Numbered from the stretch's first letter, positions 1 through 63,257 are shown. The stretch is DNA of 64,000 nt from a virus (IMGVR_UViG_3300027733_000001); one strand, 5' to 3'. Notes: generated from the sequence alone by a model not told the origin. Made by a program: numbers and translations.

Positions 1-783
1 TATCTGAACTACTTGCGCCTAGAACTACACAAGCAGGCACAAGAGCTTGGAGAAGACTGCCCATACAGCAAAGAAAGAATCGACGAGATCACCAGCAGTG
101 CCGAGAGCTTCGAGAAGGCTGCACAGGAAGAGGCTCAGTGTGTCTGGGCAGGAATCGAAGACGTCTTGCGCAAAGAGGGAGCAGATCAAGACTTCATTGA
201 CGGATTCAAGAAAGAAGCTTTCGTAGGAGCTATGCTCAGGGGGGCAGGAAAACTAATTCCTGCCGCAGGCAAAGCAATAGGAAGAGGACTAGGTAAGGTA
301 GGCCCTGCACTAGGAAGAGGTCTAGAGCACGGCATGTATGGTTCTATGGTAGGAAGCTTGATTCCAGGAGTAGGAACCACTGTAGGCGGGCTTGCTGGAC
401 TAGCTGGAGGAACTCTAGGATATGGCAAAGCAGGTCTGCTTGCCGGAGGAGCGCTAGCTGGAGGAGCTATGCTAGGAAGAGGAGCTTTTGGAGATTCAGG
501 AAAAGACACTACAGGACTAGAAGCATCCAGAAACAGAGCTCTTCCTTTCGCATCAAACAAAACTACTGGGGCAGTAGGAGGAGCATTGCTGGGTTCGCTG
601 CTTGCCAACGAAATGGGTGTGAGCGGTGCAGGTGCATGGATGATGCCTGTGCTTGGAGGTCTTGCAGGCTATCATCATCTTCCTAACCTGATGGACAAAT
701 GGAAAGATCCATATGGCTATGGTGTGAACGCTATAGGTGCTGGTGCAGCAGGTATGAACAGAGCAATGCCACTAACAGAATAA
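1..783 (+). CDS. Gly-rich putative virion-internal protein with K-x-A motifs (5' truncated by window edge)
   Basis: Frame is open from base 1 (YLNYLRLELHKQAQ). HKQA, EKAA and DFIDGFKKEA motifs are followed by GxxxG-rich hydrophobic stretches. Confidence 0.6.
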   Translation, partial: YLNYLRLELHKQAQELGEDCPYSKERIDEITSSAESFEKAAQEEAQCVWAGIEDVLRKEGADQDFIDGFKKEAFVGAMLRGAGKLIPAAGKAIGRGLGKVGPALGRGLEHGMYGSMVGSLIPGVGTTVGGLAGLAGGTLGYGKAGLLAGGALAGGAMLGRGAFGDSGKDTTGLEASRNRALPFASNKTTGAVGGALLGSLLANEMGVSGAGAWMMPVLGGLAGYHHLPNLMDKWKDPYGYGVNAIGAGAAGMNRAMPLTE

Positions 784-784
784 T

Positions 785-1597
785 ATGACTGAACTATACC
801 TTCCTGCATTCTATCTCGGAGTTTCAGAAGAACTAGCCAAGCAGGCAGGCATGCAGGTTGACAGCATGCCCTTGAACGAGAACATACTTCCTACTATCTC
901 AAAGCAGACCAAGTGGCGGTATGTTCGCACAAAAGACGGACTCAAGCTTACTGACGGAAACCTGGTATACAGCTTCGGAGGACTTCCTGAAGAGTTTCCT
1001 GCTGAAGACGCTAGAATCAGCAGACATGCCGACGACAACATTCTAAACTTCGACAAAGACGCTGTCTCTAAAGGCACAGCACAGATCCACAGGGCCAGCC
1101 CAGATAACATCTATATGACTCTGGCCAACGGCAGTCAAAACCCTACTTTCATGCTTCAGCACGAGGGAGGCAAAAACTGGAGATATTCTCCTGCTAAAAA
1201 GTTTGTGCAAAAATTAAAAGCTCTTCAGGAAAAAACTCCTCTTCCAGAAGAGCCAGTGAGTGTAGATCCTACTGCCCTGATCGAAGGAGCTCAGGACACA
1301 GTCAAGCAGGCCTCTATGCTGAGTCTTCCTGGTCTAGGAGCAGGAATGCTTACAGCAGACACTGCAGCGCTAGGACTCAACAACATCGGTCAAAACCTAC
1401 TGCAGGCAGGTCAATGGATGGGAAAGCATCCTGTAGCTAGCGGGCTAGGTATGTATGGACTGGCTAGAACGGCTGTTCCTAGCTTTAGGAAAAACATACT
1501 CTCTCATCCTGAGCAATATTATAGAACTAGAGATACTCTGCTGCCTATAGCTGCTGCTGCAGTTCCTGCTACTCTAGCGTCTGCAATCATGAAATAA
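785..1597 (+). CDS. hypothetical protein with K-x-A motifs (LAKQA, VKQA), putative virion-internal
   Basis: 270-aa ORF starting 1 nt after the previous stop; hydrophobic Gly/Ala tail after the second KQA. Confidence 0.55.
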   Translation: MTELYLPAFYLGVSEELAKQAGMQVDSMPLNENILPTISKQTKWRYVRTKDGLKLTDGNLVYSFGGLPEEFPAEDARISRHADDNILNFDKDAVSKGTAQIHRASPDNIYMTLANGSQNPTFMLQHEGGKNWRYSPAKKFVQKLKALQEKTPLPEEPVSVDPTALIEGAQDTVKQASMLSLPGLGAGMLTADTAALGLNNIGQNLLQAGQWMGKHPVASGLGMYGLARTAVPSFRKNILSHPEQYYRTRDTLLPIAAAAVPATLASAIMK

Positions 1598-1598
1598 T

Positions 1599-2000
1599 AT
1601 GGATCAAGGAATGCTCACATCTCTACCTATCGCTGCCTATTCGCGCAGAGGTATGAACATGTATGACCCTAGAATAAGTCTGCATGAGCAAAACGTACTA
1701 GATGAGCATACCAACATATTGCATAACCTGGTGCAAAAAGATCATGGGCTGGACAAACATCAAAAGCATCATCTGACCACAATGCTCAACAGTCCAGAGT
1801 ATGTAGAGCATCTTTTGGCTGGAGGCACAGGCACAATGCTCATGCACTCTATCCATCACTATTCAAAGCTTCCCCGCCCAGTACAGACACTATTGAGCTT
1901 GGCTGGTTTTGGAATAGGTAATATAATCTATAATGAATTTCACGAAGACAGATTTTCAGAGCATCATCCTCATTCAGGCAAATCTAGAATAAAGTATTAA
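1599..2000 (+). CDS. hypothetical His-rich protein
   Basis: 133-aa ORF packed with 1-nt gaps on both sides. Confidence 0.6.
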   Translation: MDQGMLTSLPIAAYSRRGMNMYDPRISLHEQNVLDEHTNILHNLVQKDHGLDKHQKHHLTTMLNSPEYVEHLLAGGTGTMLMHSIHHYSKLPRPVQTLLSLAGFGIGNIIYNEFHEDRFSEHHPHSGKSRIKY

Positions 2001-2001
2001 T

Positions 2002-2373
2002 ATGGAACTTTCAAAATGTGCACAAGCTATTAAAGACGAGCTGATCCTCGAGCTGCAAAAAGCCGGATCTTCTCTTCGGGAATTCGAGGAGGGACTAGCC
2101 AACATCAACACTGGAGAAGGAGTATACAAGATTGCCAAAGACGGAGGCAGTATATTGAACTCCTATCTAGACAAAGGAATGGGTATGGCCGGAAGCATAC
2201 CTGAAGTAGCACTCAAAGGTTCTCTGGCTGGCGGGGCACTGGCAGGACTTACACTGGATGAAGCAGACAAATCTGTAGACGTACTCAACAAATCTCTTGA
2301 TAGAGAAAGGGAGAAGGTTAACCTTGTTCGCAGGATTACCAACAACCTAAGAAGAGAACATGGACTTATTTAA
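2002..2373 (+). CDS. hypothetical protein with Gly-rich helix and C-terminal coiled coil
   Basis: 123-aa ORF in the operon; GSLAGGALAG stretch; YKIA motif. Confidence 0.6.
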   Translation: MELSKCAQAIKDELILELQKAGSSLREFEEGLANINTGEGVYKIAKDGGSILNSYLDKGMGMAGSIPEVALKGSLAGGALAGLTLDEADKSVDVLNKSLDREREKVNLVRRITNNLRREHGLI

Positions 2374-2758: not shown

Positions 2759-2762
2759 CGCA

Positions 2763-3863
2763 ATGAGCTATAGCCTAACCAAAAAAGCAGCCACCCCTAT
2801 TCCACTGTCTCCAGACGAGCAGTATGAAGCCTCTCAGCTTTTCGGTAAAAGCTTGTTCAGCGCTCTGCAGCTTGTGAGAGAGCAGCAGAGAAGAAAAAAC
2901 ATGTTGATGAGTGGCGCAGAGGGACAGGGAGGAGACGATAAGGTTTTGAGAATTCCTATTCCTGAGCATATGATGCCTAGCAGCAAAACAGCTCAGGACG
3001 AGGATGCTCCTTACACTACTTTGCAGGATCCATATGAACCTGTAAAAAATCCAGGCATACTTGCACACATCAAAAGAAATCTAGGCAAGTACATCGGCAG
3101 TTATGGTGGCGCACTAATCGGCGGAGGACTAGGCGCTAGAAAGGTTATGAAAAATAATCCTGCTGCAGGTGTGATCGAGGCTTTGAAAGGTGCTGGTAGG
3201 TCTGGAGTTAGAGGAGGTGTAGTAGGAACGATAGCCGGATCTATGATGGATGATGCGGTTAAAGACAGCTATCGCGAAGATCTAGTGAATGCGCAGAGAC
3301 AGCATGACATGATGCAGAACATGTACGGCTATAAGCAAGGTAGCGAAACTGACGAACCTGCTCCAGGACTTCTAGGTAGAGCTTTCAAAGCGCAGCAGAA
3401 TCCTATTCGCTTGCTTGTAGGCGGGCAGTCAGGATTCAGAGACGCTAAGCAAGACTATTATATGCGTCAACGTCACCTAATCAATCAAGAGCTAGAGAAT
3501 GCTCAGCGTGAGTATGTAGATCTACTCGGCAAGATCAAGAAGGGCTCGGACGATAGTGAAGAAACACCATATACGGACGCTTTTTGTAACGGTATCGCAT
3601 ATGCTACACTTTTCGGTAAAGAAGCTGAGGCTGAAGATGTGGATATTTCCGACGGTTCCATGAAACGCTTGATGGGTGGTGTGCTTGATCAGGCCAAGAA
3701 ACCCTTTCAGCCTGTGGTAGACACCGCCGCTAGCGGGCTACTAGGTACAGGTACAGGTTCAGCATACCTTACATATCTGTTGAGGAAATCTATGCGCGAG
3801 GAACCAGACAGATACATGCAGGAAGGTCTTCCTACCCGCGTCGAACTTCAACCCTACACCTAG
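2763..3863 (+). CDS. K-x-A-motif, Gly-zipper putative virion-internal protein
   Basis: ATG at 2763 (in frame with the track ORF from 2658) follows the 2758 stop. Contains TKKA, SKTA, YKQG and GKEA motifs and GGALIGGGLG/GGVVGTIAG helices. Confidence 0.65.
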   Translation: MSYSLTKKAATPIPLSPDEQYEASQLFGKSLFSALQLVREQQRRKNMLMSGAEGQGGDDKVLRIPIPEHMMPSSKTAQDEDAPYTTLQDPYEPVKNPGILAHIKRNLGKYIGSYGGALIGGGLGARKVMKNNPAAGVIEALKGAGRSGVRGGVVGTIAGSMMDDAVKDSYREDLVNAQRQHDMMQNMYGYKQGSETDEPAPGLLGRAFKAQQNPIRLLVGGQSGFRDAKQDYYMRQRHLINQELENAQREYVDLLGKIKKGSDDSEETPYTDAFCNGIAYATLFGKEAEAEDVDISDGSMKRLMGGVLDQAKKPFQPVVDTAASGLLGTGTGSAYLTYLLRKSMREEPDRYMQEGLPTRVELQPYT

Positions 3864-3864
3864 C

Positions 3865-4653
3865 ATGAAACTAGATATAGACCAACTTAATAAGGGTATT
3901 GAGGCTGAAATGAGTAAGACATCGATGATGTCTGTAGGTATTCCCGCCGCCGCCAGAGCTGCAGCTCCTTCAATTGCTGGTACAGCTGGTAAAACAGTAG
4001 CCAAGTATGCTCCAGTTGTAGGTGGACTTGTACATGGAGGTCTCGCAGTCAATGATGCTATGAACGGAGACTGGACCGGCGCAGCAATGAATACCGGGTC
4101 AGGTATAGCCTCAGGCCTAGGACTTACACCATTATCTGTCGGCCTGGATGTTGCCAATGCTGGAAGATCGATGGTGGGTAGTGCAGGTAACTGGGCAGGT
4201 AACGCTATAGGTAACACTGTAGGTAAATATGCGCCGTTGGCTATGGCAGGCATAGCCGCTTTGGGCGGCGGCAACAAAGCGCGACAGTCTCCGATGTATG
4301 CTCTACCGTATAATGGTCCCAGACCTCAGTCTATTATAAATCCGTCCTCAGACCCTCACTCTCTCGCAGCACCGCAAATGTTCCAGGAAAGTCTTGCAGG
4401 TACTCCACAACCATATCAAGGAAAGCTGGCTTCTTATGTAGAGAAAACATCCGGGGTCATGGATGCATTTGCCGGCGCGGCTGCCCGTAAAGCTGTCGAT
4501 AATGTTTTCAATGCAGCTGTTACGCCTGAGCAACCTGCTCCAGCAGAGCACAAAGAAAAAGAGCTCGAGATTACTTCACAGTACCCTGAGATTGCAGAGC
4601 TTCTTAAAGACGAGCAGAACAAAGCCTACCTCCAAAAGCTTTTAAACACATAA
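3865..4653 (+). CDS. Gly/Ala-rich putative virion-internal protein
   Basis: 262 aa; SKTS and EKTS motifs; amphipathic APVVGGLVHGG...GDWTGAA segment. Confidence 0.6.
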   Translation: MKLDIDQLNKGIEAEMSKTSMMSVGIPAAARAAAPSIAGTAGKTVAKYAPVVGGLVHGGLAVNDAMNGDWTGAAMNTGSGIASGLGLTPLSVGLDVANAGRSMVGSAGNWAGNAIGNTVGKYAPLAMAGIAALGGGNKARQSPMYALPYNGPRPQSIINPSSDPHSLAAPQMFQESLAGTPQPYQGKLASYVEKTSGVMDAFAGAAARKAVDNVFNAAVTPEQPAPAEHKEKELEITSQYPEIAELLKDEQNKAYLQKLLNT

Positions 4654-20713: not shown

Positions 20714-21143
20714 ATTTTGTGTATTTACGGCTTAGATTTTCAGCCAGTATAATGTTCACGTACATGCCTGCTTTTTGTAGAGCCTGTTTAATTTTGTATG
20801 GTCTCCGGAAATTACTTCCGTCGTCTAGATACTCACTTTTAAACTCTAGGTCATATAGAGCAAAAATCTCTAGCCATACTTTTCTACGGTTATAGAACTC
20901 TTGCACAGCCGCCATACACCCCCACAGATAGAAGTCTCTACCTGTGCTTTGATATATCCACATAGCTATCCCGAATATTACTTGCTGCAGCTCCAGATAT
21001 GCTTCAGCTAGTGCTAACCTACTCAAGGCTTCAAGCACCTCAAATATTTCTTTCACACAATGCTTTACGTAATAATCTGCAGTATGCTCTTTTCCGCCAA
21101 GAATATCCCTGTACACAGTGGAAGCTCTGCGAGAAGGAATCAT
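20682..21143 (-). CDS. hypothetical protein, weak MazG/all-alpha NTP-pyrophosphatase resemblance
   Basis: KEIFEVLEAL...YLELQQVIF resembles the MazG EE..E..EA...ELGD pattern; lies next to a Nudix gene. Confidence 0.4.
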   Translation of the reverse strand: MIPSRRASTVYRDILGGKEHTADYYVKHCVKEIFEVLEALSRLALAEAYLELQQVIFGIAMWIYQSTGRDFYLWGCMAAVQEFYNRRKVWLEIFALYDLEFKSEYLDDGSNFRRPYKIKQALQKAGMYVNIILAENLSRKYTKYVTKSQTTDS

Positions 21144-21787
21144 TTGATTAGTTTGTGTGCTGCAGGACCCATATAGTCTGGTCCATGCATCGACGTATGT
21201 TCTAGAGTTATCACTGGGTCAGATCCGAACGTAGATTTATAGCTACCTGGATGTATATCGTGATCAGTAAGCTCTAGATAATGCTGCCCGTCGTGTTTGC
21301 CTAGGTATCTAAAAGCACTGGGATTTACTTTGGCTCCAATCTCCTCATGCAGCTCTCTGGTAGCTGCCTCGATAGGTGTTTCGCCTTTTTCGATTCCTCC
21401 CCCGATATGTCTAACCTTACCAATATTAGTAGGCCATTGAGGATTGTTCAATCTTTCAAGAAGATATTGCCCTTTATAAGGCAATACAACTCTAACTCGT
21501 TCCTGAGCTGCTGTTTTACTACTCATACGTTTTTCAACATCGATAGGTATTAGCATCTTGGGGGCATGTATTTTAAACCCGCTAGGTTTGTGTGTAAGCC
21601 CTACATACTTACCATCAGCTGCAGTGCTGTCCACCTTGAACTGTTGCGGATATTTTTGCATGAGGCTAGCTAAAATCTCATGCTTACCTCCATAATCGTT
21701 TTTATCGGAAAGCTCCTTGGCCTCGATAAGCTTTTTTAATGCATATGACTTAGCCAGCTTTACTAGGTTTAGTGGGAACACTAGCAT
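21140..21787 (-). CDS. Nudix hydrolase with an N-terminal extension ending in KTA
   Basis: GGGIEKGETPIEAATRELHEEIG is a full Nudix box; the domain begins right after SSKTAA. Confidence 0.85.
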   Translation of the reverse strand: MLVFPLNLVKLAKSYALKKLIEAKELSDKNDYGGKHEILASLMQKYPQQFKVDSTAADGKYVGLTHKPSGFKIHAPKMLIPIDVEKRMSSKTAAQERVRVVLPYKGQYLLERLNNPQWPTNIGKVRHIGGGIEKGETPIEAATRELHEEIGAKVNPSAFRYLGKHDGQHYLELTDHDIHPGSYKSTFGSDPVITLEHTSMHGPDYMGPAAHKLIK

Positions 21788-43270: not shown

Positions 43271-50527
<7,257 letters not shown>

Positions 50528-50582: not shown

Positions 50583-50990
50583 CTACTTAAAGGAACCAAG
50601 TTTGGATTTAGCAAGAGCTGTATAATAATCACTTCTTTCGACTAGATGATCTTTAGCTATTTCTTTAGCAGTATCGTTGTCGTCGGTATGCTCATGCTCA
50701 TGCTCTACACCCTTACCGAGTTCATTCTTGTCGAATAGATTGTCAGGCTTGTTGTCGCCTTTACCGCCTTTTAGTTTTTCTGCAGCCTGCTTGATTGCTA
50801 GTACTCTAGCTATAAACGCAGCCTTCTTATCAGGCAAACCATCATGCTTTGTAGCTGCAAAATCATGAAGTTGTTTCTCGCTCATACTATTGGCAAGCTC
50901 TTTAGCTTTACCAGACATATGCCCATTGCCTCTTTTGGCGGCTAGAGCCATGCCAAATAATCGTTGCTGTGCTTCAGATTTAGCAGGCAT
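50583..50990 (-). CDS. DUF3008-like plus DUF5661-like fusion protein
   Basis: MPAKSEAQQRLFGMALAAKRG...MSEKQLHDFAATK and KGVEHEHEHTDD...KEIAKDHLVERSDYY, linked by KKAA/KQAA. Confidence 0.65.
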   Translation of the reverse strand: MPAKSEAQQRLFGMALAAKRGNGHMSGKAKELANSMSEKQLHDFAATKHDGLPDKKAAFIARVLAIKQAAEKLKGGKGDNKPDNLFDKNELGKGVEHEHEHTDDNDTAKEIAKDHLVERSDYYTALAKSKLGSFK

Positions 50991-51002: not shown

Positions 51003-51506
51003 TTAAACCAATTTACCGGCATCGACCAACCGCTGCCTAAAAAGTTTTTTAACCATAGGATCGGCCAGATCTTTTGAAAGTCTTGTGCCCACTCCTAGTC
51101 CTGAGCCCAAACCTATACCGCCTCCTATGCCAGCACCTACAGCAGTACCTTTAAGCCCACCTGTAAGCATAGACATAAGTCTGCTCTTGTCTACAAGCTT
51201 TCCTGTCTCTGGATCAATTTCTTGTCCAGGGTTCATAAGACCATTAGCACCGCCAACAAGTCCTCCTAGTGCTCCTCCAGTAATTCCCCCTGTAGCTGCT
51301 CCCACCGCTCCCATTGCTCTAGTCGGTTTTTTTGCCATACCTGCCAGGAAATTTCTTATTGCCTTAGCCCCCGCAGGTAACGATGCGCTTGGAGGCAGAT
51401 TAACAGCTTCTTTTAAAATTCCCGCAGCCTCCTGTTCACTATAACCATATTCGCTAGCTTTCTTAACGAATCCATTGATGTATGCTTGTTCTTGTTGTGT
51501 TGTCAT
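51003..51506 (-). CDS. leader-family protein with Gly-zipper hairpin cargo
   Basis: Leader QAYINGFVKKASEYGYSEQEAAGILKEA. Confidence 0.7.
   Translation of the reverse strand: MTTQQEQAYINGFVKKASEYGYSEQEAAGILKEAVNLPPSASLPAGAKAIRNFLAGMAKKPTRAMGAVGAATGGITGGALGGLVGGANGLMNPGQEIDPETGKLVDKSRLMSMLTGGLKGTAVGAGIGGGIGLGSGLGVGTRLSKDLADPMVKKLFRQRLVDAGKLV
51435..51493. repeat. 59-bp exact duplicate of 60257-60315 (leader-coding)
   Basis: TTCACTATAACCATATTCGCTAGCTTTCTTAACGAATCCATTGATGTATGCTTGTTCTT at both sites. Confidence 0.92.
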
Positions 51507-51514
51507 ATAGGTAT

Positions 51515-51543
51515 ATTCTACGAAATTCTTTAATTCGATGCAA
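51515..51543 (-). promoter_or_regulatory. sigma70-like promoter
   Basis: TTGCAT-N17-TAGAAT. Confidence 0.65.
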
Positions 51544-51555
51544 AGAGTATTTAAA

Positions 51556-52415: not shown

Positions 52416-52954
52416 TCATCACCGAGGTCACTGTCTAGACGTGGACGACTAAACAGGTTGTTCTTGGTTACGTATTTTTGCAGATCTGAAGTATTGTGCT
52501 TTGTTTCTGCCTGTATCAGGTTCGAAAGTCTGTTCAGTGGTGCTTTGGGATCTTTGGCCACCAGCTCTTCAAATCTAGGAATGATTTTATCTTTCATGTA
52601 ATTGTTGAGAAGCTTGCGCTTATGTACCGCTCCTGAAATTCCGCCTGCAGCAAGACCTAACCCACCACCAATCAAAGCTCCCTTTAGGCTGTTAGCAACA
52701 GACTTATCCTCGCGCTCTTCTCCAGCATTTCCGCCAAGTAATCCCAGATATGCCCCACCTACCCCACCGACCGCCAATCTCTGCTTCATATCTGTCTGAA
52801 GCTTTTTATCTTTGAGCAGCTTCATCAAGTTTTTCTTTAATCCTTCAGGCATATCAACTGCGCTTTTAAGCAGCTCATTTGCCTCTGTGCAAGATAGACC
52901 ATATTCACTGGCCTTTTTAACAAACCCTTCAATATACGCTTGTTCTACATTCAT
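52397..52954 (-). CDS. leader-family protein with Gly-zipper hairpin cargo
   Basis: Leader QAYIEGFVKKASEYGLSCTEANELLKSA. Confidence 0.7.
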   Translation of the reverse strand: MNVEQAYIEGFVKKASEYGLSCTEANELLKSAVDMPEGLKKNLMKLLKDKKLQTDMKQRLAVGGVGGAYLGLLGGNAGEEREDKSVANSLKGALIGGGLGLAAGGISGAVHKRKLLNNYMKDKIIPRFEELVAKDPKAPLNRLSNLIQAETKHNTSDLQKYVTKNNLFSRPRLDSDLGDDWKDSY

Positions 52955-53322: not shown

Positions 53323-53330
53323 ACTATATG

Positions 53331-54761
53331 CTAGGAATTGTGGCTTTTAATAATGTTGAGAAACTGGTTATTTAGCTTTTCTTTATCGTCAGCCAGCTGT
53401 TGTAGATACTCGTCAGTGCTTGTGCTCTTTTCTCTCATTATCTTCTGCAATAGAGAAGGCTTCACTGCCGATAGATATCGCTGCACCAATACCTTTCTCT
53501 TTTCAGGACTCAAGGCTTCGTGAGATTTATATCTAGCTGCTCTACCTATTACCTGTTTTAGTTTCTCGTTGTTGAAATGGGGCTCGAGCAGCTGCACAAG
53601 CCTTGTACCTTTAAGATCTAGCCCCTCTCCTCCTGCACTACTCACAATCAATGCACGAATCTTGTTATCGTTATAGTCTTTCACCAGCTGGTTTCTGAGG
53701 CTGTCTTTAATAGCTCCAGAGAACTCGCCATATGGAATCTTGTGTTCGTCCAATAGCTTTTTATATGGATTTACGCCGCTGTCGAGATAGTTGGAATATA
53801 TCAAGGCCTTGTACTCCTTGTCTTTCTCCATCTTGTTTTTGAGATACTCGAAAGCTTTTTCAATCTTGGGAGATACTGCTTTTGATGGATCTTTTTCGAA
53901 ACCGTGTGTTCCGTTACTGATCATTCTTGCGCCTGTAAGAAAGTGCACAAGCTTGTCTAGCTCTCTTTTTTCTGGAGCAAGACCCATCTCGACCTTTTTA
54001 CGAAGAACCCACGGAAGCTCTTTCATCATCGTTCCATAGATGGCTTTCTGCTTGTCGTGCATAGGAACATGCACAGTCTCTGTACTCATGCTAGGAAAGC
54101 CTTCGCTATTGCCTGCATGATAGTCTACATACTTGCCAAAAATACCCTTGAGCTCATCTTTGTTCTTAAGGCTTATATGCTCACCAGGACGAAGCCCCAT
54201 GATTCTGTTCATCAAGGTGTTTGGAACCTGTGTTCTTTTGATATAGCGCTCTTCGAAGTTTCTTCTGCTCTCTGGCATCAGTTTCTGTCCAGAGGCCATG
54301 TTTACAAGCTTGGCAATATCTCCAGGATGATTGTATATAGGAGTACCAGACAGTAACACGCGCTTTTCAGGATGAGCTTCAGACAGTGCTTTGTATAGCT
54401 TCGAGCCTTCGTTACGCATTCTGTGCGCTTCGTCTACCACAAGAAGCTTGCCCGCTAGATCGTCTCCCTCTAAGCCTTTTCTAGCTATTTCTTGCTGAGA
54501 ATGAATCTTCAGATTCTTTGGATCTTTGCCTATCCATTTTTTTAGCTCTTTGCGATAGTTCTCTTTTAGTGCTGCAGGGGCTACCACCTCTGCAGGCAAC
54601 CCTAGTGCCTTGTATGCCTCGATGCTGCTTCTAGTCTTACCGCTCCCAAGACCATGCATAAGAATCAGCCCCTCCTGATCCTCTTTCTTAAGCTTGTCCA
54701 CGATCCTCTGCTGATGAGGCATCAACCCTTCAGTGGGAGCAGTAACCTTTTTCTCTTTCAT
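53331..54761 (-). CDS. SF2 (SNF2-related, NPH-I/D6-like) helicase/ATPase
   Basis: HGLGSGKT, VVDEAH, LSGTP and SSAGGEGLDLKG...LEPHFN...QVIGRAARYKSH motifs. Confidence 0.88.
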   Translation of the reverse strand: MKEKKVTAPTEGLMPHQQRIVDKLKKEDQEGLILMHGLGSGKTRSSIEAYKALGLPAEVVAPAALKENYRKELKKWIGKDPKNLKIHSQQEIARKGLEGDDLAGKLLVVDEAHRMRNEGSKLYKALSEAHPEKRVLLSGTPIYNHPGDIAKLVNMASGQKLMPESRRNFEERYIKRTQVPNTLMNRIMGLRPGEHISLKNKDELKGIFGKYVDYHAGNSEGFPSMSTETVHVPMHDKQKAIYGTMMKELPWVLRKKVEMGLAPEKRELDKLVHFLTGARMISNGTHGFEKDPSKAVSPKIEKAFEYLKNKMEKDKEYKALIYSNYLDSGVNPYKKLLDEHKIPYGEFSGAIKDSLRNQLVKDYNDNKIRALIVSSAGGEGLDLKGTRLVQLLEPHFNNEKLKQVIGRAARYKSHEALSPEKRKVLVQRYLSAVKPSLLQKIMREKSTSTDEYLQQLADDKEKLNNQFLNIIKSHNS

Positions 54762-54763
54762 GG

Positions 54764-57700
54764 CTAGCCCTGTATAGGTTGTCCTATACTATTTTTCTTT
54801 TGCTTAGATTCGTTCATAACAGCATCTAACATATTACCAGAACCTGTGATTCTATGCGATATATACTTGTAGGCTCCAGGAATTCCTTCTGTAGCTATAT
54901 GAGAAAGCCCACTGACTACAGCCTCTGGAACTTTTTCAATAGGGGCGTTTCTCAGTGCCATTGTGAGGCTAGGATGCTCGTCCTCATGCATTGTCCAGTG
55001 ATCTCCGTGAGAATGAAGATGAAATAGATTGTTTGGATTTCTATATGAGGCAAACTCGTCTTGCCCTGCCTCAGGAATAGCTATAGCCACAGGCTCGAAA
55101 CCCAATTGCTCTAGATGCTCTTTAGGTAGTCTATGTTTTGGAATAGCTATACGTTTATGATATGTGCCAGCCATAACACCGTGCTCGCGCATTTTTTTAG
55201 CCCAATACTTGAAACGGCGTTTAAGTTTAGCTTCGTCTATAAGGTTTTGTTCTTCAGAAGATTTTGACATGTATCGTTTCATTGCCTCATCCGCGATTTC
55301 CTGCATGGGCTTGTATAATTTATCTATCTGTCCCGGATGAGTGACGGATGGATTTTCTACACTGTATGCAGGTGACCTTTTGGATGCGCTATTCCAGCCC
55401 ATATGTTTTCTGTAAATTCCAAACCCCGGTTTAGCGAAATTTTGTTTATAGTTATCAATCATATGCTCTGGCACAGCGCTTGCACGCATATGATTAATAG
55501 CGTTGTTATTTGCTATTCTTTCTAAAGCCAAGCTTTCAGAAGGAAATAAGTGAGGATTTTGAGTTATTTTTGTATGTAAAGGATGAGGGTCATCAAGATA
55601 ATGCATCGCGTGACCTGCACCCTCATGCATGATAGCATCAGACATTCTGTATTTCTTTTTTAAAATTTGTGTACCTCTTGACTGATTAACTAGTGATTCT
55701 GGAAGCCTTTTAGGAACATACACTACTTTATCTAAAGGATTGAAGCTTGGGGGCATATTCTCAATCTGTGAAGTTAAGTCAGAAATGTTATTAAATACTC
55801 CAGGGTGTTCTTTGCTTAATCTGTTAAAGATTTTTTTTGAATATTCTACAGGATCTTTCGTAACAGTGATTCCTCTTGCTCTAAGAGTGCGTATAATACT
55901 TTTTAAAGCACTTATAGTTGTCGCTTCTTTCTCTAACTCACTTTGCTTACCAAGATATTTGTCAGAATTTAATGCGTAAGAAGGATCGAGATTATGCTTT
56001 AATACTTCGAACTCATGTGAAGCTGCAAACGGAAGCATGCCCTGAGCATTCGCAGCAGGTAGATCAACCGATGAAGCTATCTGTTTAACAGCTGCAGATC
56101 TAGGCGCTCTAGGTCTTCCTACTCTAGACGCACTCATTCTACTTAGACTCGCGCTACTATCTTTACATCCTTTAGCTGCCTGCAGTATAAGCTCTCTTAT
56201 TCTTTCAGGTGTGGCTCCGGCTTCTTTCTTTAGTTTAGGCTTCTTTTTCTCTGTTTTAGGTCTGCAGCTGTCGTTGCTATATGGTTCTTTGCCAGGAACA
56301 GGCTCATAGCCTTCCCAGCATCTGCCTGAAGCTGTTTTATCGCCTAATAGTCTGTTATAGATATCGTTCAGTTTGTTTGAAATCTTATCATCTATAGGAC
56401 GAGGAGGATTGTGATTACGTCCACTGATGAACGTTTTGATATCTTCTGCAGTTTGATTTTTTAATGAGGAATTAATAAACTTTTCTCGAGCTATGTGTCC
56501 TTTTAGGAAACCTAGACCTCCACCTATTCCTGCCCCTACCAATGCTCTGTTCCTAGCAACTTCAAATCTATTATTAACATCGGTTTCTCCAGAGCTAGCA
56601 TCGGTTTTATCGCCTGGAAAAATCAACCCGGACAACCCGCCGACTGTAGCTCCAGCAATTGCGCCAATACCGCCTCTCAAACTACGAGCATGTCGGTTGT
56701 TAGCTCGAACTAGGCTTTTATACAGCAATTGCTCAGGTGTCATAGCAGTCTTTTCACTAGACTCCTTCTCAATAATAGGAGACTGTATAGCAGACTGCTC
56801 TTGCTTCCTTTTATGTAGATGATAAGCAAGTGCAGCTAGCCCTGTCACCCCTGCACCTATCCCTATTGCTTTACGATAAGGTTTGAGGTTTTGGAGAAGC
56901 GAAGTTTTTGGTGCGTTTACAGATTTATGCAGTTTTTTAGCTTCCTCAGTAAAACTGTAATAAGGTCTAATTGGATTAGGGTGTGGAGGAGCATCGACAT
57001 TAGCACCCATCTCTCTAAACCGGTTTTTAATGCCTGCTGTAATACTTTGTTTTACACTTTCGTCAACAGCATCATGAATATTTAAATGTTTTAATCTTCT
57101 AGCCACCCCTGAATCTGGTCCAAGCCGAACAGCTTCTTCAGCCAGTTCTTTTTTAAGTTTTTCAAGTATTTCATCAACATTTCTCCCGCTAGGGTTTAGT
57201 GCTCCTCTCAAAATAGCTTCATGTTTGTCTCGACCAAAAGCATTCACAATTTCTTCTGCAAGATTTTCAGGTAAATTAGGTTTAGGTTTAGTTGGGTCGT
57301 AAAAATATTTAATAGTGTGTTTTGTTCTTCCTGAACCAGGGACGGTTTCAAATATAGTACCATCATGAGTGCTGCTTTGAAAAAATGGAATATTTTCTCC
57401 TTTTGGTCCTTTAGCTGTATAATGTGCTCCTGGAGCATAGGAATCTGCTTGCGCTGATAAAGTGGAACTAAATTGTTTTGGTATATAATACTCATCATAA
57501 TCGATCGTCCGTAGAGGCCCTCTAAAATTCCAAGAAATGCGATCAAGATCGACAGCTTCCCCATTACTCAATCTAAACATATTAGGCGCCAGTGGCTCTT
57601 CAGCCTTCTTCTCAACAGGGTAACACAGATCCCCTTTGATCTCATAACCCTTTGGCACACTGTAACCCATATCCTTTAGAAACGAACCACTGAAAGCTTC

Positions 57701-58753
57701 ACCCTTGTCTACAGCTTTACTCACAGCCTTGGGTACCCCTGCATACTTCTCTATGTACGAGTACAGATCCAAAACCTCACTAGTTTTCTCTAAATTACTA
57801 TAATTTGTAACACTAAACCCCAGCTTACCCAATAACAGAGTATCATCATTATTAACATAGCTGTTGCCGTCCTTGTCCACTATCCCTGTGTATCTAGCTT
57901 CTTTCAAGCTTCCACGAACCTCACGATTACGCAGATTCATCCTATTATTCTTTTCAGCCTGAATGTTGACATTCCTCATGTTGTCTCTAGCCCACTGTAT
58001 AGCGTCTGGTACAACAGGAACTACAGTAGCTGCACCCTCTAGAACTGCACCAGGAATATCTTTGTTGAATGCTCTGTCGGCTATTCCAGCTATATGCGAA
58101 CCAAAATTAACTACGGGCAATTCTTTTTTAGCTATAGCTTTCAATCCTTCCAGATAGTTGCCATGAGCCATATCATACATAGCTCCGGCAGTATTGGCCA
58201 CCCTACCCATAGACTTTAGAGCAAACTGAGTGTTTGGTAGTGAAGGAGTCAATACATTGCTTGATGCTGGAGTCTGTTGATTAAGCTGTAATGGTTGATT
58301 TCCTCTAGTCTGAGAGTTTTGGGTAAAGTCTACTACACCTGCAGCCCCAGGCTGAGTAGGCGCCGCAGCTCTATTGGCTCCGGCACCTATCTCTCCTGTG
58401 GAATATGGAGTAACCCTATTGTCGTTACCTCCACCAGATATTGTTCCTCCCTGTCTAGTTCTAGCGTTGTTAGCTATGGGTGTACTAGCTGCATTGCTAG
58501 ACGCCTGCTGTTTTGGCTGAACTGGACTAGCTGGAACTATCTGTTTGTTTGCTGTAACTGGACCGTTGGTGAGAGGCTTGTTGTCTGGTGCCTCTACCGA
58601 ACCCAGCTGTTGCTGACTATTAGCTAGTGGCTTTTGCTGATTCTGTACAGCTGTTCCAGAAACCTTTAGTAGGATATCAGATAATTTTTCTTTTTTCTGA
58701 TGTGCTGAAGCCTTCTCTAGAAGTTTTTGGAGGTATTGTACAGGGTTATGCAT
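54764..58753 (-). CDS. 1329-aa mosaic polyprotein-like protein punctuated by K-x-A motifs
   Basis: Unrelated-looking segments separated by LKVS, EKKA, EKTA, DKTA, KKEA and EKEA. Includes a Gly zipper, a CWEGYEPVPGKEPYSNDSC module and an HEGAGH motif. Confidence 0.65.
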   Translation of the reverse strand: MHNPVQYLQKLLEKASAHQKKEKLSDILLKVSGTAVQNQQKPLANSQQQLGSVEAPDNKPLTNGPVTANKQIVPASPVQPKQQASSNAASTPIANNARTRQGGTISGGGNDNRVTPYSTGEIGAGANRAAAPTQPGAAGVVDFTQNSQTRGNQPLQLNQQTPASSNVLTPSLPNTQFALKSMGRVANTAGAMYDMAHGNYLEGLKAIAKKELPVVNFGSHIAGIADRAFNKDIPGAVLEGAATVVPVVPDAIQWARDNMRNVNIQAEKNNRMNLRNREVRGSLKEARYTGIVDKDGNSYVNNDDTLLLGKLGFSVTNYSNLEKTSEVLDLYSYIEKYAGVPKAVSKAVDKGEAFSGSFLKDMGYSVPKGYEIKGDLCYPVEKKAEEPLAPNMFRLSNGEAVDLDRISWNFRGPLRTIDYDEYYIPKQFSSTLSAQADSYAPGAHYTAKGPKGENIPFFQSSTHDGTIFETVPGSGRTKHTIKYFYDPTKPKPNLPENLAEEIVNAFGRDKHEAILRGALNPSGRNVDEILEKLKKELAEEAVRLGPDSGVARRLKHLNIHDAVDESVKQSITAGIKNRFREMGANVDAPPHPNPIRPYYSFTEEAKKLHKSVNAPKTSLLQNLKPYRKAIGIGAGVTGLAALAYHLHKRKQEQSAIQSPIIEKESSEKTAMTPEQLLYKSLVRANNRHARSLRGGIGAIAGATVGGLSGLIFPGDKTDASSGETDVNNRFEVARNRALVGAGIGGGLGFLKGHIAREKFINSSLKNQTAEDIKTFISGRNHNPPRPIDDKISNKLNDIYNRLLGDKTASGRCWEGYEPVPGKEPYSNDSCRPKTEKKKPKLKKEAGATPERIRELILQAAKGCKDSSASLSRMSASRVGRPRAPRSAAVKQIASSVDLPAANAQGMLPFAASHEFEVLKHNLDPSYALNSDKYLGKQSELEKEATTISALKSIIRTLRARGITVTKDPVEYSKKIFNRLSKEHPGVFNNISDLTSQIENMPPSFNPLDKVVYVPKRLPESLVNQSRGTQILKKKYRMSDAIMHEGAGHAMHYLDDPHPLHTKITQNPHLFPSESLALERIANNNAINHMRASAVPEHMIDNYKQNFAKPGFGIYRKHMGWNSASKRSPAYSVENPSVTHPGQIDKLYKPMQEIADEAMKRYMSKSSEEQNLIDEAKLKRRFKYWAKKMREHGVMAGTYHKRIAIPKHRLPKEHLEQLGFEPVAIAIPEAGQDEFASYRNPNNLFHLHSHGDHWTMHEDEHPSLTMALRNAPIEKVPEAVVSGLSHIATEGIPGAYKYISHRITGSGNMLDAVMNESKQKKNSIGQPIQG

Positions 58754-58792
58754 AAGTATAGTTAATAGTGTGCCAATTCAGCACACATTCAG

Positions 58793-59191
58793 TTATTCGC
58801 CATTCTTTACTTTGTCGATAGCTGCCTGCAACTTTTCGTTGTATCTATGTGCTCCATATCCGCCACCTGCATGAGCCGCTAGTTGACTAGCTGTTCTGCC
58901 GAGGGTAGGATTTTTAGTTAGCATACCCAGCACACTTCCACTCAGCATTCCGCCTGCAGCAGGAAGTGAGATATTCGCGAGTCTAGATGGTGCTTCACTA
59001 GGACTCATCATATCTCTTGCCCCATGATACAGTGGTAATCCTCCTCCAAATATAGCGTTCAAGGGCACATTAGCTTTTTGACCTTCCAGCTCTTTTAAGA
59101 GCATTGCTTTAGCCATGCTGCTATCTACTCCCTGTTCCGATGCTCTTTTAAAGAAACCTTCAACGAAAGCATTTTCTTGTTCTTCTGTCAT
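58793..59191 (-). CDS. leader-family protein, Gly/Ala helical cargo
   Basis: Leader NAFVEGFFKRASEQGVDSSMAKAMLLKE. Confidence 0.65.
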   Translation of the reverse strand: MTEEQENAFVEGFFKRASEQGVDSSMAKAMLLKELEGQKANVPLNAIFGGGLPLYHGARDMMSPSEAPSRLANISLPAAGGMLSGSVLGMLTKNPTLGRTASQLAAHAGGGYGAHRYNEKLQAAIDKVKNGE

Positions 59192-59237
59192 ATGTTGTTT
59201 TTTGTTTGTTTTTGTTTACTGCGAGATTTAGCCGGCA

Positions 59238-60023
59238 CTAGTGTCTTCTCATTGCCTGCTGATATAAAGGATTATTATACACTTCCTGCGCTTTCATGCC
59301 AGGATGATACATCTGTCGAATAGCTTCGGCTTTCGCTCTATCTAGTCTAGAATTGGCGTTATAGCTTCCCATGATTCTTCTTAGTTCGCTAGCACTAGGT
59401 CCAGGAGCTGCCTGCTGATATCCTACTGCTCCTCCCATAGATCTTGGAGCATTCAGGAATTGAGCGTCGTCCATCTGGGCTGGAACTGCACTAGCTAGTG
59501 GTCTTGCTTGTACTGGCTGCACTGGTCTTGTTTGCTGAACAGGTTGAGCTGGCTGAACAGGTTGAGCTGGCTGAACAGGTTGAGCTGCTTGTCTTGGCCA
59601 GCTTATACCAGAATATGGAGCTGCTCCTCCAGTATTTGTTTGCTGCACTGGTTGTACTGGGCTTGCCTGTTGGACAGGTTGAGCTGCTGGTTGCATAGGG
59701 CTAGGCTGTACAGGACGCTGAGCTGCCTGCTGCTGAGGAGCTACAGGGCTAGCCTGATTTACATGATCTGCTAGGTTTTGATAGTATTCTATCGGTCTTT
59801 TGGGTGCCTGCATCTCTGAAGGCTTTTCAAAAATCAGTTGCTCTGATGCAGGTAATACTGCACTAGACATAGGTCTAGGTTTAAACGAGCTTGTAGGAGC
59901 GGTAGGCATCTGCATATTAGTTACTGCAGATTTGTACAGCTCAAGAGCTCTACTATATTCCACTCCACACTGATCTGCTCGTTTAACAAACCCTTCAAAG
60001 AATGCTTGGTCTTGGTCTGTCAT
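59238..60023 (-). CDS. leader-family protein, Pro/Gln/Ala disordered cargo
   Basis: Leader QAFFEGFVKRADQCGVEYSRALELYKSA; QPAQPV repeats. Confidence 0.7.
   Translation of the reverse strand: MTDQDQAFFEGFVKRADQCGVEYSRALELYKSAVTNMQMPTAPTSSFKPRPMSSAVLPASEQLIFEKPSEMQAPKRPIEYYQNLADHVNQASPVAPQQQAAQRPVQPSPMQPAAQPVQQASPVQPVQQTNTGGAAPYSGISWPRQAAQPVQPAQPVQPAQPVQQTRPVQPVQARPLASAVPAQMDDAQFLNAPRSMGGAVGYQQAAPGPSASELRRIMGSYNANSRLDRAKAEAIRQMYHPGMKAQEVYNNPLYQQAMRRH
59534..59587. repeat. 3 x 18-bp tandem repeat
   Basis: GCTGAACAGGTTGAGCTG x3, encoding QPAQPV on the minus strand. Confidence 0.9.
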
Positions 60024-60034
60024 ATTATGCTAGA

Positions 60035-60322
60035 TTATTTAACTACCAAGTTTGGATTTGTTTGAGGAGGACCTTTGGACACAGGCTGCTTTGGCGCCAG
60101 TGTAGGCTGACCTGTTTTCCATTCATTCCACATTTCTCCAAAAGTTTTAACTCCGTTATATGGAGCTAGCTGAGTTTTACTAGGTAGTGAAATTGCTGCT
60201 GGCTGAACTACACCTGTAGTAGGTCCTGCCTGCTTGAGGATATATAGGGCTTCATCTTCACTATAACCATATTCGCTAGCTTTCTTAACGAATCCATTGA
60301 TGTATGCTTGTTCTTTTGTCAT
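60035..60322 (-). CDS. leader-family protein, short Pro-rich cargo
   Basis: Leader QAYINGFVKKASEYGYSEDEALYILKQA. Confidence 0.7.
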   Translation of the reverse strand: MTKEQAYINGFVKKASEYGYSEDEALYILKQAGPTTGVVQPAAISLPSKTQLAPYNGVKTFGEMWNEWKTGQPTLAPKQPVSKGPPQTNPNLVVK

Positions 60323-60327
60323 ATGTT

Positions 60328-60858
60328 TTATCCCTGAGGTATTGTGTTCTGTTGTTCGAATCTGTTGTTTGCTGCTGCTTGCTGATTGATATGTCTACCT
60401 ACGTCTCTAGCTTTATTCAGATAGCTGAGCCCGGTAGATGGAATGATGCCGGCAGGTCCTCCCATCAAAGCAGCATTGCTGAGTGTATCTATGCCTGCCC
60501 CTATAAAATCTCCTTCGGCTGCTCTTGCTACAGGGCCTGCAACATGTCCTAGAACAGGAACTGCACTAGCGATTGCTCCTCTACTCATAGGTACTGCTGT
60601 ATTGGTAGGAGTATACGGGCTTGTTTTTTGCACAGGCACACCCTTCTGAGGAAAGTCCATGATTGCTGCGCTTCCTGGTGTAGGGTTAGGATTAGCATTC
60701 CTGGTAGCGATTCCTGCATTGATCTGATTGTTGGTTCTGAAACCAGGGCGAACTGGTGCTTGAGCCTGTTTGAATATATTCAGCGCTTCTTCTTCACTAT
60801 ATCCGTACTCATTTGCTCTTTTTACAAAGCCAATTAGAAAACTTCTATCTGTACTCAT
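60328..60858 (-). CDS. leader-family protein, amphipathic Gly/Ala cargo
   Basis: Leader RSFLIGFVKRANEYGYSEEEALNIFKQA. Confidence 0.7.
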   Translation of the reverse strand: MSTDRSFLIGFVKRANEYGYSEEEALNIFKQAQAPVRPGFRTNNQINAGIATRNANPNPTPGSAAIMDFPQKGVPVQKTSPYTPTNTAVPMSRGAIASAVPVLGHVAGPVARAAEGDFIGAGIDTLSNAALMGGPAGIIPSTGLSYLNKARDVGRHINQQAAANNRFEQQNTIPQG

Positions 60859-60859
60859 A

Positions 60860-61204
60860 TTATTTCTGGTTGTTTGTTTTCAGCTTTTCTTTCCAAACAC
60901 CAGCGTCTACTACGACGTTTGGATTTATATTTTTATAGCATCCGTTGTGTCCTATAAGCAAGTGGCAAATAATTCCATAGCTCTTAGATTCACACATAGT
61001 AATAAGATTGCTAGGCTCTAGTTCTAGTTCTGGATGCTCATGAAAAGGTTTGATGTGATGCACCTCGAGCTTGTTCTTGTCTCCGCACACAGCACACTCA
61101 CTGTTCTTTTCCAGATGGTGTTTCCTTACGGTAGGCCAGTGGCTTGATCTTTTTGCTCCGCTAGGAGCCTTGCCCTGCAGTATGTCTTTTACGCGCTTGA
61201 TCAT
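60860..61204 (-). CDS. HNH endonuclease
   Basis: CAVCG...LEVHHIKP...NLITMC...CHLLIGH. Confidence 0.9.
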   Translation of the reverse strand: MIKRVKDILQGKAPSGAKRSSHWPTVRKHHLEKNSECAVCGDKNKLEVHHIKPFHEHPELELEPSNLITMCESKSYGIICHLLIGHNGCYKNINPNVVVDAGVWKEKLKTNNQK

Positions 61205-61208
61205 AGTC

Positions 61209-63257
61209 CTAGCTTTTTAGACGCTCTATAAGCTGATTATTGAAAGCTTCATCCTCGGCAATTTCACTGAGTGTTCTAGAATCTTTTGCAGTGGTAGCCT
61301 CTCGTTTCAGCTGCTTCACCAGATCTTTTGCAGGTTTTCTAGACTCTTTTATTTCTTTTCTTATAGCTTCAGATTTAGCTCTCCAGTGTGTAGGTTGATC
61401 TAGCTGCGTTCTTGTCTGCATGTCTTTTAGATGAAAACGTAACGCATCCCCTGGAGATATAAATTTATTATCGCTCAATTGCTCGTATTTTCGCCCAAAA
61501 TCGCTATCCATTTTATTCAAGTCAGCTTCGCGTTTTTCCAGCCGTCTATATTCAGGACTTGCACGATGTTTACGTATATCTTCAATTTTTCCTCTACCAT
61601 CTGCAATTGCATGATTTATCGTGCGATTATCTGGGTTGTCTGGGAACATTTTTTTGACTTTAGCTCTATAAAAATTATCTGCTTTTCCTGCATCTCTCAT
61701 GTTGGCACACATTAATCGGAGGCGTAGTGCCTCTACCTTTGCATCGTCCATGAAATCAGGCAAAATCCTCTCAACTTCCTTTTTGTGATACTTTTCGAAT
61801 ATTTTTGGCTCTTTGGTCGCATGTAGTGCTTTGCCTCCTGTTCTACCTAAAATACCTCCAGCTGTACCAAAAAGTAATGCGCCTTTGAGACCAGCTTTTA
61901 ATTTTGACTCTGCTGGTTCGCCAGTTTCAGGATCTTTTGCAACATTTGATACCCCACGTATTCCTCCGTATATTCCTCCAATTCCTGCTCCGGCCAGAGT
62001 ACCACCATTTATGTAGTTTTTTTCTACGTCAGCTAATGTTTTACTTAGTCCCTTAGACCTGTAGGCCTGCGTATGCGCTTTACTTAGATATTTCTGCTTT
62101 ATATCTTCAGGCACCCTTATGTTGAAAGCCTGCTTGTCTAGGCTTCCAGCCTTTAACTGAGGTATATTGTCTGAATAGACTCCTGTAATCGGGTCCATGT
62201 TTACAGGCTTTGCAGTCCTTTTCATATGCTCAATTTCTTCTTTTGAGAACTTTGGAGCTGGCGCCTTGTAGCCGTTAACAATGACATCGTTCACACTGTC
62301 TGGTTTAAGCTTAGAAGCATTTCTCGCCAGATCGTTTGCAAGTTGATGTCCTCTTCTTCCTCTAGACGGCCCCATACTCTTTAGATGTACATCCTCAATT
62401 CCACTACTGCGAATTCCGTGTTTTTGGCGATAAGCTTTTCTAAGCTCAAGCACTTCGTCTATTATTTTTTTATCGTGGTTTGAAACACGCATTCCGCTTA
62501 TACCGCCGGCTCTATGGTTCTCTAAGCGTTCCCTAAATTTTCCTTTCGCTGTACTAGCGCCTATAGCTCCCCATGTAGCTGCACCTATACCTCCTGATAT
62601 CAAACCGTTCTTTATTGCGTTTTTCATACTACTATCACCGTCAGGAGATGATCCTTGAAGTGTACTCAATCCGCTAAGTCCTCCATGTACCAACCCTCCG
62701 GCTGTACCGCTAATCAGTGCAGCCTTTAGCCTCTCCTTCAAATAAGCATCTTGTAGAATTTTGCTTGGAGATATGTGAGTGGCCCTTTTATTCAATCTAG
62801 CTAGCATGTTCTCTTTGACTTTGTCGGCTAGATTAATATTTTTTGTGTCTTTGTCTGCTTGTCGATAGATGTATTTGCCTGCTCTGGAAATATTCTCAGG
62901 AGCATTCTCGGCTATTCTACTCAAAGAATTGCCATAGTCTTGCATAGGTCCTCTGACACTCCAACGGCGACCTAATTCGCCAGCACCTGCACCTAATGCT
63001 GCCCCTGCACCCAAACCAACACCTGCATGTCCACCCATAGCTTTGAGATACTCTGTTATTTTAGCTTTAGTATCAAGCTCATCTAGCTCTCCATTACGAT
63101 GCCTGTTTATTGTTTTAGCTAGACCCACAGTTCCGCCCACGCCAGCACCAGTCAATCCTCCAGCTACAGCACCTACAGTTTTATAACCTTTGTGTTTATC
63201 TAGCATCAGCCGCTCTATTGCAGCTGTGTAAAGTTTTCTTTTTTGTTCGGGTGTCAT
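61209..63257 (-). CDS. 682-aa protein with three Gly-zipper hairpin modules separated by K-x-A
   Basis: Modules start at the N-terminus, after LNKRA and after LDKQA. Confidence 0.7.
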   Translation of the reverse strand: MTPEQKRKLYTAAIERLMLDKHKGYKTVGAVAGGLTGAGVGGTVGLAKTINRHRNGELDELDTKAKITEYLKAMGGHAGVGLGAGAALGAGAGELGRRWSVRGPMQDYGNSLSRIAENAPENISRAGKYIYRQADKDTKNINLADKVKENMLARLNKRATHISPSKILQDAYLKERLKAALISGTAGGLVHGGLSGLSTLQGSSPDGDSSMKNAIKNGLISGGIGAATWGAIGASTAKGKFRERLENHRAGGISGMRVSNHDKKIIDEVLELRKAYRQKHGIRSSGIEDVHLKSMGPSRGRRGHQLANDLARNASKLKPDSVNDVIVNGYKAPAPKFSKEEIEHMKRTAKPVNMDPITGVYSDNIPQLKAGSLDKQAFNIRVPEDIKQKYLSKAHTQAYRSKGLSKTLADVEKNYINGGTLAGAGIGGIYGGIRGVSNVAKDPETGEPAESKLKAGLKGALLFGTAGGILGRTGGKALHATKEPKIFEKYHKKEVERILPDFMDDAKVEALRLRLMCANMRDAGKADNFYRAKVKKMFPDNPDNRTINHAIADGRGKIEDIRKHRASPEYRRLEKREADLNKMDSDFGRKYEQLSDNKFISPGDALRFHLKDMQTRTQLDQPTHWRAKSEAIRKEIKESRKPAKDLVKQLKREATTAKDSRTLSEIAEDEAFNNQLIERLKS

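Follow-up and report, generated by a model that had tools for sequence, protein, structure and literature searches.

Here we consider the tripeptide Lys-x-Ala (K-x-A) in the proteins encoded by a 64,000-nucleotide stretch of viral DNA, IMGVR_UViG_3300027733_000001 (the window), and by relatives of its source phage. We propose, with a probability of roughly 0.7, that K-x-A, in its fuller form hydrophobic-x-K-x-A/S, is the site of the capsid-maturation (prohead) serine protease of this phage clade, an enzyme with the fold of T4 gp21 and herpesvirus assemblin, as in MEROPS families S77, S21 and S78, that most likely cuts after the Ala or Ser. A prohead-protease site had been suggested from the window alone (the sequence-only reading), and this idea gains support, by inference, from enrichment of the motif in the head module, the gp21-like fold of a protease encoded there, the ends of a common leader and the bracketing of protein modules. 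The enrichment, the conservation, the link with junctions and the fold of the protease in relatives were all computed here.

The window is part of a 196,038 base-pair contig of a large uncultured tailed phage. The phage's own protease gene lies beyond the window, and the head module and protease were examined in relatives. Three related genomes were compared whole, G003, G002 (complete, with terminal repeats) and G004, together with the cultured Salmonella phage Arash. Relatives in IMG/VR are 165–204 kb long, with an RNA polymerase identity of 67–82%; among cultured phages, Arash and three Vibrio phages come closest, at 26–28% capsid identity. A nucleotide search of a phage collection with the window gave no match. 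Genes and proteins of the window are referred to below by their first coordinate.

The head module of G003 was taken as the genes from that for an RNA polymerase beta-prime-like protein to that for the capsid (158–177.5 kb), and residue pairs were counted at spacings of 0–3. K-x-A ranked first of 1296 pairs, with 86 occurrences against 45.7 expected (p = 6.7e-8), and occurred at 255 against 261.7 expected in the remaining genome. The head modules of G002 (86 against 44.6) and G004 (76 against 39.0) likewise have K-x-A as their most enriched pair; it is also the first of 1170 pairs in Arash gp218–226 (46 against 21.0), and it is at expectation outside the head module in all three (the rest of each genome or region). 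The fuller hydrophobic-x-K-x-A is enriched about 3.5-fold in head modules. A scaffold-like protein carries 15 K-x-A in 304 residues, nearly all of them conserved over three genomes, and the capsid protein has K-x-A at the same aligned place in Arash despite 28% identity. The two capsid sites, EEKKA↓AVSAQ and LVKEA↓GAAMSAF (the arrow follows the last residue of the motif), both stand right before a conserved F-x-R-x-KLRE. A head-module protein of the source phage itself opens with MRKPNLTKYA↓ADDQ.

The head module encodes a putative protease of 476–480 residues, with 213 relatives in the database. Its gene lies near the scaffold and capsid genes (158–177 kb in G003), in the same order as in Arash gp218–226; over its 130–165 kb region Arash keeps the succession of RNA polymerase, helicase, K-x-A-rich proteins, protease gp222, scaffold-like gp223 and capsid gp226. 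The G003 orthologue has 871 residues (169858–172473; L025:9858–12473) and contains an intein with Hint and LAGLIDADG endonuclease parts, which sits ten residues past a conserved Ser-Met-Ala with the putative catalytic serine; the orthologues of G002, G004 and Arash are free of it. A general Pfam scan gave no protease match for this protein, and a PDB sequence search with the protease profile returned noise only.

An AlphaFold model of the G002 orthologue, encoded at L033:13187–14629, was built from 42 sequences, with a predicted local distance difference test (pLDDT) score of 71. Foldseek alone gave an E value of about 0.3, and only with a second aligner was a match clear: the N-terminal beta-rich domain of the model fits T4 gp21 best (5jbl_C), with a Z score of 9.2 and a root-mean-square deviation of 3.4 Å over 139 of 166 residues. 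The proteases of varicella-zoster, pseudorabies, herpes simplex and cytomegalovirus follow with Z scores of 5.0–6.4. Since unrelated MCE-domain proteins also score 5–6, the match to gp21 is the only distinct one. Two candidate catalytic residues, His104 and Ser155, do not vary among the 42 sequences, and His170 and His181 hardly do, in a gp21-like arrangement as judged by spacing. K-x-A sites flank the catalytic domain in these sequences (LTKxA, EKTA, SLKLA↓S and ISKKA↓S), and conserved K-x-A both before and after it is what would be expected of an enzyme that trims itself.

In the window the motif is best followed in the operon at 1–4653, the seven proteins of which were aligned with orthologues found in as many as 11 relatives. 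No other a-x-b motif is as conserved in position as K-x-A in these alignments (rank 1 of 49), and the same holds where the flanks are less than 40% identical (rank 1 of 31; Mann–Whitney p = 4.8e-5). With 4.3 expected at either edge, K-x-A lies at the left edge in 17 of 60 lineage-specific inserts (p = 2.6e-6) and at the right edge in nine. The best-kept sites are K19 and K174 of protein 785, K43 of 2002, K75 and K286 of 2763, and K58 and K90 of ORF1, the first open reading frame. The sequence-only reading held that the motif marks domain boundaries, and every tetrapeptide that it listed is present in the frame to which it was assigned. The claim stands for the conserved sites, for the inserts and, as described below, for mosaic junctions and leader ends. 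It does not stand for every site: several of those listed look like chance, and 785 K91 (which reads FDKDA), 2763 K142 and 3865 K47, K121 and K187 are not conserved in the operon alignments and are probably chance occurrences.

The individual proteins illustrate how closely motif and variable region adjoin. Protein 785 (785..1597, forward strand), a cargo protein of 270 residues, has the N-terminal signal LPAFYLGVSEELAKQA, which ends at KQA (839–847), and a second site, VKQA (1304–1312), directly before a Gly-rich tail that varies; 70% of orthologues retain K19 and 90% retain K174, both within stretches that are otherwise poorly conserved. Its orthologues in four relatives carry an insert that begins directly after the first site and itself closes with K-x-A: QKQA↓RCWEGY...KKEKKA↓ATDL, EKFA↓...GNKMA↓FDV, QKTA↓...EVKLA↓VDLE and EKSA↓RALTKEA↓LDI. 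The same is seen in protein 2763 (2763..3863, forward strand), a cargo protein of 366 residues with the sites LTKKA (2781–2789), SSKTA (2985–2993) and FGKEA (3618–3626), which 50, 70 and 90% of orthologues, respectively, retain: SSKTA directly precedes a hypervariable insert region that also closes with K-x-A in four relatives. Protein 2002 (2002..2373, forward strand; 123 residues) has MELSKCA (2014–2022), with K5 kept in 60% of orthologues, and GEGVYKIA (2128–2136), where K43-x-A is found in all ten, with a variable or inserted stretch after it.

Protein 3865 (3865..4653, forward strand), a cargo protein of 262 residues, bears MSKTS (3916–3924), before a region that expands to about 400 residues in one relative, and VEKTS (4444–4452). 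Both K-T-S sites align with K-x-A in about seven of ten orthologues, from which it follows that Ser is allowed as the last residue, as had been suggested; Ser also ends 15% of leaders. ORF1 (1..783, forward strand) is a Gly-zipper cargo protein of 279 residues whose frame begins upstream of the window. It has the candidate sites KQA (31–39), KAA (115–123) and KEA (211–219), the last within a leader-like stretch, DFIDGFKKEA. The family aligns poorly because its lengths differ greatly, and K-x-A lies within five alignment columns of these sites in 44, 67 and 56% of orthologues.

The link between motif and module border is clearest in protein 54764 (54764..58753, complementary strand), a mosaic cargo protein of the polyvalent type with 1329 residues. 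Its 15 database homologues each share some segments only, and other modules found among them are an AAA_18 kinase, KTSC, PF19846 and Nudix. The ends of homology cluster at about residues 283, 384, 670, 806, 846, 938–943 and 1163, at the sites KEA (57896–57904), KKA (57602–57610), KTA (56744–56752 and 56330–56338), KEA (56219–56227 and 55922–55930) and KSS (55256–55264). Six of seven K-x-A sites fall on junction clusters; they occupy six of the 19, where the null model gives 1.44 on average (P = 2e-4), and each of the five clusters with the most members coincides with a K-x-A site. The seventh junction reads K-S-S in the window and K-Q-A in homologues.

Between DKTA and KKEA of this protein lies a module of 34 residues, RCWEGYEPVPGK..SCRPK (56228–56329). 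This Cys-containing mini-module, RCWEGYEPVPGKxPYSxDSCRPK, moves among unrelated virion genes and is always bracketed by K-x-A/S. It is found again in orthologues of 785, at the beginning of an orthologue of 2763 and, after the leader, in a protein of 65 residues, bracketed by the motif each time; its occurrences beyond the window are in L005, L011, L015 and G002 (60455–60652). A Pfam scan of protein 54764 found no metallopeptidase domain. Near residue 1045 (about 55600–55640) the protein has MHEGAGHAMH, which resembles the HExxGH metal-binding motif and which, on sequence grounds, could be a candidate for a built-in peptidase of the kind assumed for polyvalent proteins.

Two fused proteins show the motif at the join. 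The Nudix protein (21140..21787, complementary strand) has SSKTA (21509–21517) between the Nudix part and an N-terminal domain. G003 encodes the two parts separately, with a Nudix gene that opens with ...AGFVKSS right before the same QERVRVV; the partner domain (87–91 residues) occurs by itself, without Nudix, in G002, and in G004 it is joined to a start that resembles DUF3008. Protein 50583 (50583..50990, complementary strand) joins DUF3008 and DUF5661. It has IKQA (50784–50792), a candidate only, and DKKA (50820–50828), which ends the DUF3008 module; homology with the DUF3008 protein of G003 stops at A57, the Ala of DKKA. The two parts are neighbouring genes in G003, where a full copy of the leader described next directly follows EKKA of the DUF3008 module.

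Six genes of the window (51003, 52397, 58793, 59238, 60035 and 60328) open with a leader of 33 residues, EQAYIEGFVKKASEYGYSExEAxxILKxA. All are on the complementary strand. The leader occupies residues 1–34 of protein 51003 (51405..51506) and ends in ILKEA; it covers residues 1–32 of 52397 (52859..52954; LLKSA), 1–33 of 59238 (59925..60023; LYKSA), 1–32 of 60035 (60227..60322; ILKQA) and 1–32 of 60328 (60763..60858; IFKQA). In protein 58793 (59090..59191) the internal GFFKRA is kept and the end motif is degenerate (MLLKEL). A profile of 16 leader copies, run against 1.84 billion proteins, retrieved 626 cluster representatives, and nearly all matches cover the first 34 or so residues of short proteins that are otherwise unrelated. 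K-x-A/S closes the leader in 147 of the top 150 representatives, where the final residues are L (88%), K (96%), x and A (83%) or S (15%); the frequency of the end motif is partly circular because the profile includes it. The abrupt end of conservation is not circular: beyond the final A/S no amino acid exceeds 19% at any position. Leader-like repeats also occur twice inside the protein encoded directly after the protease in G003, G002 and G004, which hints at a way for the leader to dock in the procapsid. That the cut falls after the Ala is inferred because inserts start there, the conservation of the leader ends there and enzymes of this fold read P3-x-P1.

Several observations weigh against this assignment. 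Plain K-x-A shows no enrichment inside the window itself. Enrichment of K-x-[ASG] had been put forward as a check, and it fails: the count in each reading frame is near that expected from composition. Pooling the 14 proteins named in the sequence-only reading gives 45 K-x-A where 37.7 are expected (p = 0.135; rank 186 of 1276 pair motifs), 27 K-x-S for 22.9 expected and 18 K-x-G for 35.3. Gly as a permitted last residue must therefore be given up, since K-x-G is depleted here and nearly absent at leader ends. When a hydrophobic residue two places before the Lys is required, the named set has 27 occurrences for 9.9 expected and, once the leader paralogues are set aside, 18 for 8.2; the operon at 1–4653 has 11 for 2.9, and the remaining window proteins have seven for 17.5. 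This refinement was devised post hoc, with the data already seen. The orthologues share a common ancestry, so that the conservation counts represent non-independent events. PF03420 (S77), the Pfam model of the gp21 family, had no match in five relatives, and none in control genomes; and PHROG 18299, 'head maturation protease', matches weakly (E = 3.3e-4). A head-module protein of 750 residues has nine K-x-A, not all of which can be cleavable if the protein stays whole. Finally, no cleaved terminus is on record in the clade, where the paper on the Arash virion proteome was not aimed at processing (PMC10585845) and gives coverage figures that are of no help here.

The only protein in the window with an excess of K-x-A is a Trp-rich repeat protein (21853–25716). 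All ten of its K-W-A occur as NNNKWAY within the repeat unit, and the excess was rejected as a signal of the motif, being a product of that unit. Depletion is also seen. The SNF2 helicase (53331..54761, complementary strand) has no K-x-A against 3.7 expected and two K-x-[ASG] against 11.7 (P ≤ 0.0005 by shuffling), and a protein of 1022 residues with three glycosyltransferase regions (25777–28845) has one K-x-[ASG] against 13.0, likewise significant by shuffling. The depletion in these two proteins may reflect avoidance of the site. The Arash homologue of the helicase, unlike that of the window, shows no such depletion.

Other explanations of the motif deserve consideration. It might be an uncut docking or linker element, for example a helix-end signal bound by scaffold, portal or a chaperone, that marks the borders of modules. 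This would suit a motif that closes a targeting-type leader, that is abundant in helical scaffold-like proteins and that appears nine times in the 750-residue protein, which is presumably needed whole; the lack of recorded cleavage would suit it too. We regard it as unlikely, however. Docking has no need for 15 copies in one scaffold-like protein, nor for the bracketing of every swapped module or the flanking of the protease's own catalytic domain, and the three-residue shape mirrors the known sites of the same protease fold. Chance occurrence in Lys- and Ala-rich proteins, with the sites picked by eye, would account for counts in the window that match composition, for the non-conserved sites among those listed and for the K-W-A of the repeat protein. 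It would leave unexplained the first rank in positional conservation, junction tests with P values from 2e-4 to 2.6e-6, and the top rank in four head modules, including that of a phage with a capsid identity of just 28%. As a general explanation it is very improbable; we reject it for the conserved sites on the conservation and junction tests, and it stands for the non-conserved ones.

The association with junctions could also be a by-product at the level of DNA, in which short conserved strings of codons serve as recombination joints and the peptide has no role. Modules such as the CWEGY cassette do move between unrelated genes, always bracketed by the motif. The middle residue is free (T, K, Q, E, V, L or S) and Ala has four codons, which leaves too little fixed DNA for homologous exchange, and enrichment in scaffold-like proteins and at leader ends would not be explained; a pure recombination joint is thus highly unlikely. 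Least credible of all is methylation of the Lys by the SET-domain protein of the phage (5561..5971, forward strand; Pfam SET, E = 8.8e-16), which the sequence-only reading had offered as its alternative. The SET gene adjoins the cargo operon. The complete, terminally repeated G002 nevertheless lacks SET and has the same head-module enrichment (86 against 44.6), which makes methylation unlikely, and such a modification would leave inserts and module swaps that start right after the Ala unexplained.

Returning to the protease, we can outline how it might act. Cargo proteins would be made with an N-terminal address, either the 33-residue leader or a signal of the form hydrophobic-x-x-G-hydrophobic-x-E-E-hydrophobic-x-K-x-A; the short N-terminal signals of proteins 785, 2763 and 3865 likewise close with K-x-A/S. 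The address would take the cargo into the assembling procapsid, probably by pairing with the leader-like repeats of the core protein encoded beside the protease. After closure of the shell, the protease would strip the addresses and cut the scaffold-like protein into short peptides. It would also split the modules of mosaic proteins, so that each long reading frame would represent a polyprotein of ejected factors. We put at about even odds the full proposition that a single Lys-x-Ala code operates over this clade of 180–215 kb phages, read by an enzyme of gp21/assemblin fold with a herpes-like Ala at P1, which strips a universal 33-residue address and dismantles mosaic reading frames into ejected enzymes.

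Arash virions contain RNA polymerase subunits and the SNF2 helicase homologue (gp217) in large amounts (PMC10585845). A set of packaged, ejected proteins is plausible for the clade because these virions carry polymerase and helicase. Among pair motifs in the 14 named proteins (cargo proteins of 1–4653 and 51003–63257), GxxxG glycine zippers rank first, with 104 occurrences against 49.3 expected, which suggests membrane-active ejected proteins. The Gly-zipper protein 61209 (61209..63257, complementary strand; 682 residues) has LNKRA (62781–62789) and LDKQA (62127–62135), which are candidate sites only: the search detected no homologue, and hydrophobic-x-K-x-A occurs twice against 1.9 expected. 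Pfam assigned no family to most of the 14 named proteins. Elsewhere in the window it identified dCMP deaminase, amidase, class II ribonucleotide reductase, cobalamin adenosyltransferase, PhoH, several glycosyltransferases and an HNH nuclease, together with a fragment of RNA polymerase beta (11676–12368) and five collagen-like fibre proteins (32481–50527).

If the proposal is correct, loading and release would follow for any module placed between two K-x-A sites behind a leader. This would account for the unrestricted shuffling of cassettes, and the code points to a reason for the ready movement of enzyme modules in the polyvalent proteins of the clade. Motif and leader together would provide a listing, from sequence only, of the packaged and ejected proteome in a clade that is almost wholly unannotated (626 leader clusters and 213 proteases). 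The process itself is classical; what is new is the predicted specificity, the widespread leader and the use of polyproteins. A literature search, incomplete in its coverage, turned up no earlier account of a prohead protease that acts at Lys-x-Ala.

Polyvalent proteins of phages and plasmids are long packaged mosaics of interchangeable enzyme modules, proposed to be cut into units by a built-in metallopeptidase (Iyer et al., 2017; PMC5512222). Protein 54764 resembles them as a multi-module mosaic encoded among virion genes, with homologues that carry kinase, KTSC and Nudix modules. It departs from that model in that Pfam found no built-in metallopeptidase and the borders carry the head-protease motif instead. 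The prohead proteases of phiKZ, 201phi2-1 and SPN3US (gp175, gp245) cut after Glu, at S/A/G-x-E, and process many head proteins at one tripeptide, with several copies of it in propeptides (PMC10052503). These are likewise large phages with many packaged, ejected proteins, a virion RNA polymerase and a single tripeptide motif. The motif is a different one in the present clade, which is Arash-like and of about 180–215 kb, and here it also stands between swapped enzyme modules within long mosaic proteins.

The closest structural comparison is with T4, the prohead protease gp21 of which acts at L/I-x-E. The likeness extends to the fold (Z = 9.2 to 5jbl), to a three-residue site defined at P3 and P1, to the frequency of the motif in core or scaffold proteins and to short N-terminal addresses of internal proteins that close with it (the capsid targeting sequence in T4). 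In contrast to T4, the predicted P1 is Ala or Ser instead of Glu and the predicted P3 is Lys instead of Leu or Ile, the Pfam S77 model is unmatched, and the address is a conserved two-helix leader of 33 residues found in hundreds of cargo families. In place of Glu at P1, a feature of T4- and phiKZ-type codes, the leader representatives have Ala (83%) or Ser (15%) as the last residue. Herpesvirus assemblin acts at V/L/I-x-A↓S in its maturation and release sites. The clade resembles it in fold (Z = 5.0–6.4), in an Ala at P1 that is often followed by Ser or Ala, and in sites within the enzyme's own chain; it differs in having Lys instead of a hydrophobic residue at P3 and many substrates rather than the scaffold alone. 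To our knowledge, tailed-phage prohead proteases of known specificity cut after Glu and those of herpesviruses after Ala. A phage enzyme of this fold that reads Lys-x-Ala would add a third specificity, linking the phage and herpesvirus branches at P1.

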